Positions 28,468 to 28,977 of a stretch of 64,000 nt of DNA are shown piece after piece (the first letter of the stretch is position 1; each line of letters opens with the position of its first letter). The position numbers and the translations under genes are program-made. The stretch is from Eledone cirrhosa (Eukaryota): NCBI GenBank assembly GCA_964016885.1, contig OZ024752.1, forward strand, positions 25,420,001 to 25,484,000, given 5' to 3'. The notes beneath the pieces are model-generated. The model was not told the DNA's origin. It did not search any database and saw only the letters and a list, made by a program, of their open reading frames with translations.

Positions 28468-28470
<3 letters not shown>

Positions 28471-28972
28471 AGTTTTAACTCTAATTTTCATATATATATT
28501 TCTGCTCCCTCACAAGTTGAGCTTATTAAGTTGTGTGTGTTGGACTGTTATTTCTATTTAATACACGCTTACCACGTTTGACTGGCGGAGCACGAGGTGA
28601 TAAATTCATCTTTCTGTGTGAACGTTGGCAAATAGTGTTTGTGGCATTTAATCAGAATCTCTCGCTGATGAAGCCCAGGATTATCTGTTACAAACACACT
28701 CAGGGCGAAACAGATTAGGGATAATCTGTCCGAGAGATATAATGGTTATTGAGGCGGTTTGTATTATAATAATATATTTTTATTTTTATTTTATCATTCT
28801 GTCTGCTTCTTGGTTAAATATTTCAAACATATGTGGTTTTTCAACCCTTGTAATTTTAGACACATGATTTACTGTGTTTCTTACTACATATTATTAATCG
28901 GCTCAGTATTTATTTATACTTTATACTTAGAGCTTAATAGTTACAAAGTTCCAATTGAGTTTTAACTCTAAT

Positions 28973-28977
<5 letters not shown>
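28468..28977 (+). mobile_element. 487-bp non-coding unit with 23-bp terminal direct repeat and a canonical HHR (retrozyme-like), family J
   Basis: ttgagttttaactctaattttca at 28468-28490 and 28955-28977; flanked by (TA)n. Confidence 0.65.
28658..28737 (+). ncRNA. Canonical type I hammerhead (GUC site)
   Basis: tctctcg-CTGATGA-a-gccc..gggc-GAAA-cagatta ggga taatctg-TC-cgagaga. Confidence 0.93.

Follow-up and report, generated by a model that had tools for sequence, protein, structure and literature searches.

The 64-kb window, by which we mean the whole stretch of DNA analyzed here, is AT-rich animal DNA that abounds in microsatellites and carries remnants of LINE, Penelope-like (PLE) and helicase-bearing elements. 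Its SINEs and other repeats may be of octopus type. A 487-base unit is inserted within a single (TA)n tract, the two parts of which (neither given a strand) flank it at 28436–28466 on the left and 28978–29008 on the right. The left tract is the likely target, and a real target-site duplication (TSD) would be hidden there. Both neighbors of the unit lie on the minus strand, a SINE on one side and the tail of a PHD-finger LINE on the other. The SINE is presumably of the tRNA type; a search for tRNA genes over 28000–29200 returned none. The LINE (29043–32183) retains an open frame of 1045 amino acids for an endonuclease and a reverse transcriptase (RT), the latter followed by a PHD finger; it has an (ATC)n tail at 29010–29039, and its nearest relatives are 49–58% identical. 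Elsewhere in the window, a PIF1-like helicase fragment, likely of a Helitron, at 53308–54276 (plus strand) adjoins a GIY-YIG remnant.

The unit begins and ends in a 23-bp direct repeat on the plus strand, the left copy (28468–28490) being the 5′ end of the insertion and the right copy (28955–28977) its 3′ end. The copies lie 487 apart, and the match grows to 32 bp with the TA run behind the 23-mer. When the 510-nt stretch was shuffled 300 times with its dinucleotides preserved, no exact repeat exceeded 13. The 23-bp repeat and the 487-nt unit described in the sequence-only reading are confirmed. Parts of the unit are contained in 7 of the 11 listed public sequencing runs (three studies, four organism labels), and four of them (X1, X4, X6 and X9), one of which may come from the species of the window, were aligned to the unit at 82% likeness. 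No RNA run is among the listed holders, a result without bearing on expression. The matches (373 X1 contigs, 7 from X4, 3 from X6 and 527 X9 reads) identify a multicopy family. Details of the copies rest on the best 40 of 97 substitutions, 12 of 18 indels, 12 of 90 loose ends and 19 of 390 pieces. Contig depth is used qualitatively and gives no copy number, and an alignment gap at 28763–28801 is a filter effect.

Within the unit, all on the plus strand, a first TA tract (28490–28499) follows, in circular order, the right end of the window copy and is the putative priming site. A second (28885–28891) is the place where many related copies end; a C at 28887 interrupts it in the window copy, while most aligned family sequence has T at this position, including X4 and X6 contigs that run on. 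Judged from these alignments, 28885–28891 is a TA tract in the family that is interrupted in the window copy. Both ends found among the copies (28891 and 28977) thus sit at internal TA tracts. A long branched hairpin is predicted at 28481–28628; at its pair 28536/28565 both sides change, from U-A to C-G, in X1 and X4 contigs, and one side only in X6. A small AC-rich hairpin is predicted at 28858–28879, just before the common copy end. A 17-nt segment (28950–28966) is absent from a 470-nt variant, in which 28949 is joined to 28480 (the joint may shift by 2). The unit, 487 or 470 nt long, has a GC content of 32.6% and no long terminal repeats, the repeat being of 23–32 bp only. Its predicted RNA fold is strongly self-paired (z −3.33, none of 100 shuffles as good), with 61% of the bases predicted to be paired in a circle.

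The center of the unit holds a type I hammerhead ribozyme motif (28658–28737, plus strand) with a predicted cut after 28730. Stem I pairs 28658–28664 with 28731–28737 (7 bp, with an eighth pair, A-U, in the window copy) and is followed by the core CUGAUGA (28665–28671) and one extra A (28672). Stem II (28673–28676/28703–28706, 4 bp) carries a 26-nt loop II. Then come GAAA (28707–28710), stem III (28711–28717/28722–28728, 7 bp) with its GGGA loop, and GUC (28728–28730). When the 86 nt are folded in isolation, the hammerhead has the lowest energy (z −2.74; 1 of 200 shuffles equally good), and a scan for type I hammerheads found six loci in the 64-kb window and none in each of 20 shuffled windows. 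Both results bear out the motif as it had been read from the letters, with its two 7-bp stems (I and III), GGGA tetraloop and GUC. Rfam gave no match to a hammerhead at the gathering score; the closest model was Hammerhead_HH9 (14 bits against 52, E 3.6), and this silence probably stems from the 26-nt loop II. Rfam matches with E up to 10 revealed no other ribozyme family in the unit, nor was a minus-strand hammerhead found in it. The sequence of the GGGA loop III differs between family copies. A mussel retrozyme family without the usual bases for the tertiary contact between loops 1 and 2 is described in PMC7229834. A longer stem II/III search pattern gave 0 loci in viral contigs and 0 in prokaryote contigs; 120 metagenome-contig loci obtained with an 18-nt pattern were set aside as chance, the longest BLAST match to the unit being 33 nt.

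The 64-kb window holds no second hammerhead of the unit. With one hammerhead at the locus, unit-length RNA cannot be released, and the locus would be a product and not a source. According to a 2026 preprint (10.64898/2026.07.22.740005), an active retrozyme locus requires two hammerheads, and of nine predicted retrozyme dimers one was cleaved in vitro and eight were not, an outcome that weighs against the retrozyme reading.

Substitutions spare the ribozyme. Among the best 40 of 97, none falls in the 49 core and stem positions (13 core, 36 stem), against a rate of 9.6% of positions outside (P about 0.007); those within the ribozyme strike loop III and the extra base 28672, and one X1 contig has an altered core base. 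Predicted helices are broken by two or three of these same substitutions, where 8.6 would be expected. These constraint figures are rough, as the structure is that of the window copy and only the best-supported substitution rows enter. The longest ATG frame of the unit is 44 amino acids. Comparison with 121 PLE proteins gave a best E of 0.069 and no coding remnant, four frames had no Pfam match at cut-off, and a 70-aa frame had no hits among 1.84 billion proteins. The RT-plus-GIY-YIG frame of an autonomous Penelope-like element was not found in the unit. By all three comparisons the unit is non-coding, as had been claimed, and no PLE frame is attached to it among 19 of 390 pieces and 12 of 90 loose ends, a sample in which an ORF-linked form can be hidden.

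How the two ends of the unit relate is seen best in other copies. One 163-nt X4 contig, from a related organism, runs through 28879–28949 and then 28480–28572, with 71 letters on its short side; read as sequence, it is the head-to-tail junction of the 470-nt variant without the 17 nt. The same junction occurs in one X1 contig, in which a 10-letter loose end before 28480 matches 28940–28949, including its two common variants. Another X1 contig, spanning 28470–28547, links 28470–28490 to the left part of the unit (28491–28547) at a depth of 180.7, compared with 6.65 in a 4.9-kb contig. A 23-mer that has diverged precedes 28495 in 18 X9 reads. In a further X1 contig the match ends at 28986, the last base common to both repeat copies, with 20 letters beyond. 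The sequence-only reading had called for tandem or permuted copies: the head-to-tail joint is present in other copies, but no piece among 19 of 390 holds two hammerheads, and the direct joint comes from the single 163-nt X4 contig. X9 molecule ends at five of six listed places lie at AATT and were taken for restriction cuts of the RAD library, and X9 loose ends at 28606, 28700, 28743 and 28852 (agreement 0.36–0.5) were excluded as likely ligation artefacts.

These junctions bear on what the 23-bp repeat is. Were it a target-site duplication, the insertion would measure 464 nt, and animal retrozyme TSDs are indeed said to exceed 4 bp in PMC7229834. But copies of two organisms have the 23-mer, in full or as its last 11 nt, attached to the unit, so the repeat belongs to the element, and both flanks are (TA)n; we regard a duplication as highly improbable, and the earlier suggestion that the 23-mer might be one, and so absent from other copies, does not stand. 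Only slightly less improbable, in our estimate, is that the locus is what recombination has left of a tandem array of DNA, or an array that the assembly has collapsed, so that several units may be present and the locus may be a source. The same two ends would survive if a collapse or a deletion joined identical units, and arrays are the norm for retrozymes as described in PMC7229834 and 10.64898/2026.07.22.740005; against collapse, the window resolves repeats of 1.6 kb and 2.4 kb. The earlier reading of the unit as one circle length plus overlap fits the junctions, but the same junction would be left by a linear multimer or by a gutted Penelope tandem.

The last of these deserves the most weight among the alternatives. 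A Penelope element arranged as pLTR-ORF-pLTR might have shed the ORF located between 28949 and 28480 and multiplied, non-autonomously, from linear tandem transcripts; the 23-bp repeat would then be a short 5′-truncated partial tandem or a tail, and no circle would be needed. Among the best 12 of 90 loose ends, 28891 is where 11 X1 contigs, one of them 4,895 nt long, and 58 X9 reads pass from the unit into AT-rich letters; this common end lies 161 nt after the predicted cut site. Summed X1 depth falls toward the 5′ side, reaching 26,596 at 28836–28889 and 16,459 at the ribozyme against a mean of about 3,170 elsewhere. By analogy, this shape matches a constant 3′ end combined with truncation at the 5′ side, a pattern known from published PLEs. 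The 5–8-fold excess over 28650–28891 counts against the retrozyme reading, in that most related sequence is the ribozyme-plus-3′-end part which an abundant Penelope parent would leave, and such a parent is possible. Truncation at the 5′ side, (TA)n targets, partial tandems and tails of 30–40 bp are all given as PLE traits in PMC8557442. Xenopus retrozymes match pLTRs (10.64898/2026.07.22.740005). On the other side, the unit has no coding remnant, the same junction is found in two organisms, and the continuations to the left of 28495 (among the best 12 of 90 loose ends) are all the unit's own right end. Comparison of the unit with the 3′ regions of four PLE remnants in the window revealed nothing shared. 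Its 7-bp helix III contrasts with the ribozymes of metazoan PLEs, described as minimal in PMC4209133, and with the hammerheads at 6389 and 54966 in the window, which follow GIY-YIG remnants (5817–6143 and 54233–54691) and are minimal too; invertebrate retrozymes are reported to have a stable helix III (PMC7761336), so that the non-minimal ribozyme of the unit matches the published distinction between PLEs and retrozymes. Taken together, we judge the gutted Penelope unlikely, yet a contender to be reckoned with. It and the retrozyme reading differ mainly in the existence of a circle.

The reading that we prefer, and hold to be probable, is that the unit is a dead-end daughter of a family of the non-LTR-retrozyme type; a Penelope enzyme with (TA)n as primer likely made it from circular or multimeric RNA. 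In favor of this reading, the window carries a PLE with a CX4CxxC linker, the type that PMC8557442 ties to (TA)n targeting. The family likely derives from a Penelope pseudo-LTR; the preprint 10.64898/2026.07.22.740005 likewise derives retrozymes from pLTRs and regards solo monomers as offspring unable to move, a class that it describes for metazoan non-LTR retrozymes. As far as the published descriptions cited here extend, the unit shares with those of coral, mussel and axolotl (PMC7229834) and of vertebrates (10.64898/2026.07.22.740005) a type I hammerhead, a stable helix III, the lack of coding capacity, a GC content under 45%, a self-paired fold, many copies, a head-to-tail junction and Penelope elements in the same genome. 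Like the coral ones, it also comes in two lengths, a single short indel making the difference (17 nt in the unit, 20 nt in coral; PMC7229834). It differs in a 7-bp helix III and a 26-nt loop II that are long, in being known from its sequence alone, and in a length of 487/470 nt, which lies within the overall range of 51–972 but above 150–450; with respect to the 150–450 bp of PMC7229834, the 487 nt speak against the retrozyme reading. Its ribozyme is predicted to be blocked in the circle, whereas most animal circles are described as unblocked, some mussel ones excepted (PMC7229834).

Two other systems come close. The pseudo-LTRs of endonuclease-bearing PLEs (Neptune/Nematis and Penelope/Poseidon; PMC4209133, PMC8557442, PMC11167929) are described with a type I hammerhead that lies upstream of a constant 3′ end, with truncation at the 5′ side, a (TA)n target without a readable TSD and a short extra piece at one end, all as in the unit. 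In contrast to them as so described, the unit lacks an RT/GIY-YIG frame or its remnant, has a long rather than a minimal helix III, and closes on itself at a fixed junction. With plant LTR retrozymes and hammerhead viroids the unit has in common a complementary segment that is predicted to block the ribozyme in the circle, on the account in PMC7229834; unlike them, it is of type I and not type III, has no long terminal repeats, is low in GC and bears its ribozyme on one strand only. From its sequence, the unit is likely a member of a new family of a known, retrozyme-type kind. Among the matches listed (titles and abstracts; supplements or subscription journals may hold one), no paper deals with an octopus or cephalopod retrozyme or hammerhead family, or with TA-tract priming of retrozymes.

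Loop II offers a possible basis for the predicted block. The sequence-only reading had noted that the loop is complementary to parts of stem III and proposed an alternative inactive fold. A match of 7–8 bp does exist, but 62 of 1000 shuffled loops pair equally well, and such folds make up at most 0.7% of the ensemble; this fold is rejected. A far longer complement lies upstream, in the plus-strand segment 28635–28653, which pairs with loop II over 17 of 19 bp (12 bp between 28635–28646 and 28686–28697, and 5 bp between 28649–28653 and 28679–28683) at −21.7 kcal/mol. Against the 40-nt flank 1 of 1000 shuffles paired as well, and against all upstream sequence 13 of 1000, with four targets tried. 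The predicted probability of the active fold, 0.57 when the ribozyme is folded by itself, falls to 0.04 for the linear monomer and to 0.016 for the circle, over a gap of only 1.7–2.4 kcal/mol. The full helix is thus predicted to block the ribozyme by a folding program without pseudoknot modelling. Its 5-bp part could instead be an activating pseudoknot: it is located where stems I and II would come into contact, and for about 40% of hammerheads a pseudoknot linking these stems is predicted (PMC3088659). The full blocking helix leaves 5 nt to close stem II, by estimate too few, which makes a two-state switch between pseudoknot and blocking helix plausible on the modelled structures. The blocking helix loses one pair through G28643C, a frequent variant in X1, X4 and X9, and the best 40 of 97 substitutions include no compensatory change on both sides that would support this helix.

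A route by which a retrozyme-type family could have produced this copy can now be outlined. Master loci with two or more units, which we infer, would be transcribed; the hammerheads would cut out monomers of 470 or 487 nt, and a host ligase would close them. In the closed RNA loop II is predicted to pair with 28635–28653 and so keep the ribozyme inactive. The nick in a genomic (TA)n tract would come from a Penelope RT/GIY-YIG protein, also inferred; by pairing with either internal UA tract of the RNA, the DNA end at the nick would serve as primer for reverse transcription. In most copies synthesis would start at 28885–28891 and be cut short on the 5′ side. In the window copy it would start at the 28490–28499 tract (behind 28977), make one full turn and stop 23 nt into the second. 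The stop may reflect the enzyme meeting its own product, a guess from one such copy; to our knowledge, PLE enzymes lack RNase H. The position of both copy ends at internal TA tracts suggests, at the level of sequence, priming by annealing to nicked (TA)n. A lizard PLE counts against such annealing, in that it is reported to prime in vitro without homology to the cut DNA and not to need ribozyme cleavage (PMC11167929). Priming and insertion of retrozymes are still a proposal in PMC7229834, PMC7761336 and 10.64898/2026.07.22.740005. We therefore put forward only tentatively, and think rather doubtful in its entirety, that the insertion ends record the retrotransposition of a circle, with (TA)n priming on UA tracts, one turn and a stall past the start, and that the circle stays closed through the 17-of-19-bp anti-ribozyme helix, which is perhaps one part of a two-part pseudoknot switch.

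Retrozyme-type repeats are known in many animals, and one more family is a small gain. The copy ends at two internal TA tracts, together with a copy of one turn plus 23 nt, do make circular-template priming cheap to test across a genome, and the upstream complement of loop II suggests, in testable form, how such a circle could escape self-cleavage. Should the tentative reading of the insertion ends hold, they would make the mobilisation step of the retrozyme model readable across one genome.

The window contains further elements of related kinds. The PLE at 33792–38019 is 5′-truncated, with RT thumb, CX4CxxC linker and GIY-YIG in a 386-aa frame, a 1.6-kb inverted copy that is 96% alike, and a 3′ part with a long CA/TA microsatellite. 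Hammerhead-like motifs with a U3-A8 core variant lie at 33831 (minus) and 37980 (plus), at the extreme 3′ end of the PLE at 33792–36236 and of its inverted copy; this PLE seems to end 2 nt past the predicted cut site. Minimal type I hammerheads are present at 6389 and 54966 on the plus strand and at 10440 and 45978 on the minus strand. Two related motifs at 63534 and 62707 (both minus), 827 apart and about 75% alike, belong to units that each end in (TA)n; no ORF was seen with them, and the pair is either an old partial tandem or another family without coding capacity. Six copies of a hammerhead-like family whose stem II measures 7–12 bp lie in the window, at 2636, 3889, 11681 and 13187 (minus) and at 4291 and 20474 (plus), none farther than about 200 nt from a (TA)n tract. 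Near-perfect long palindromes occur at 5047–6207 (97%), 20694–21121 (100%) and 62014–62573 (87%), and the one at 5047–6207 encloses a GIY-YIG remnant, resembling inverted PLE insertions.
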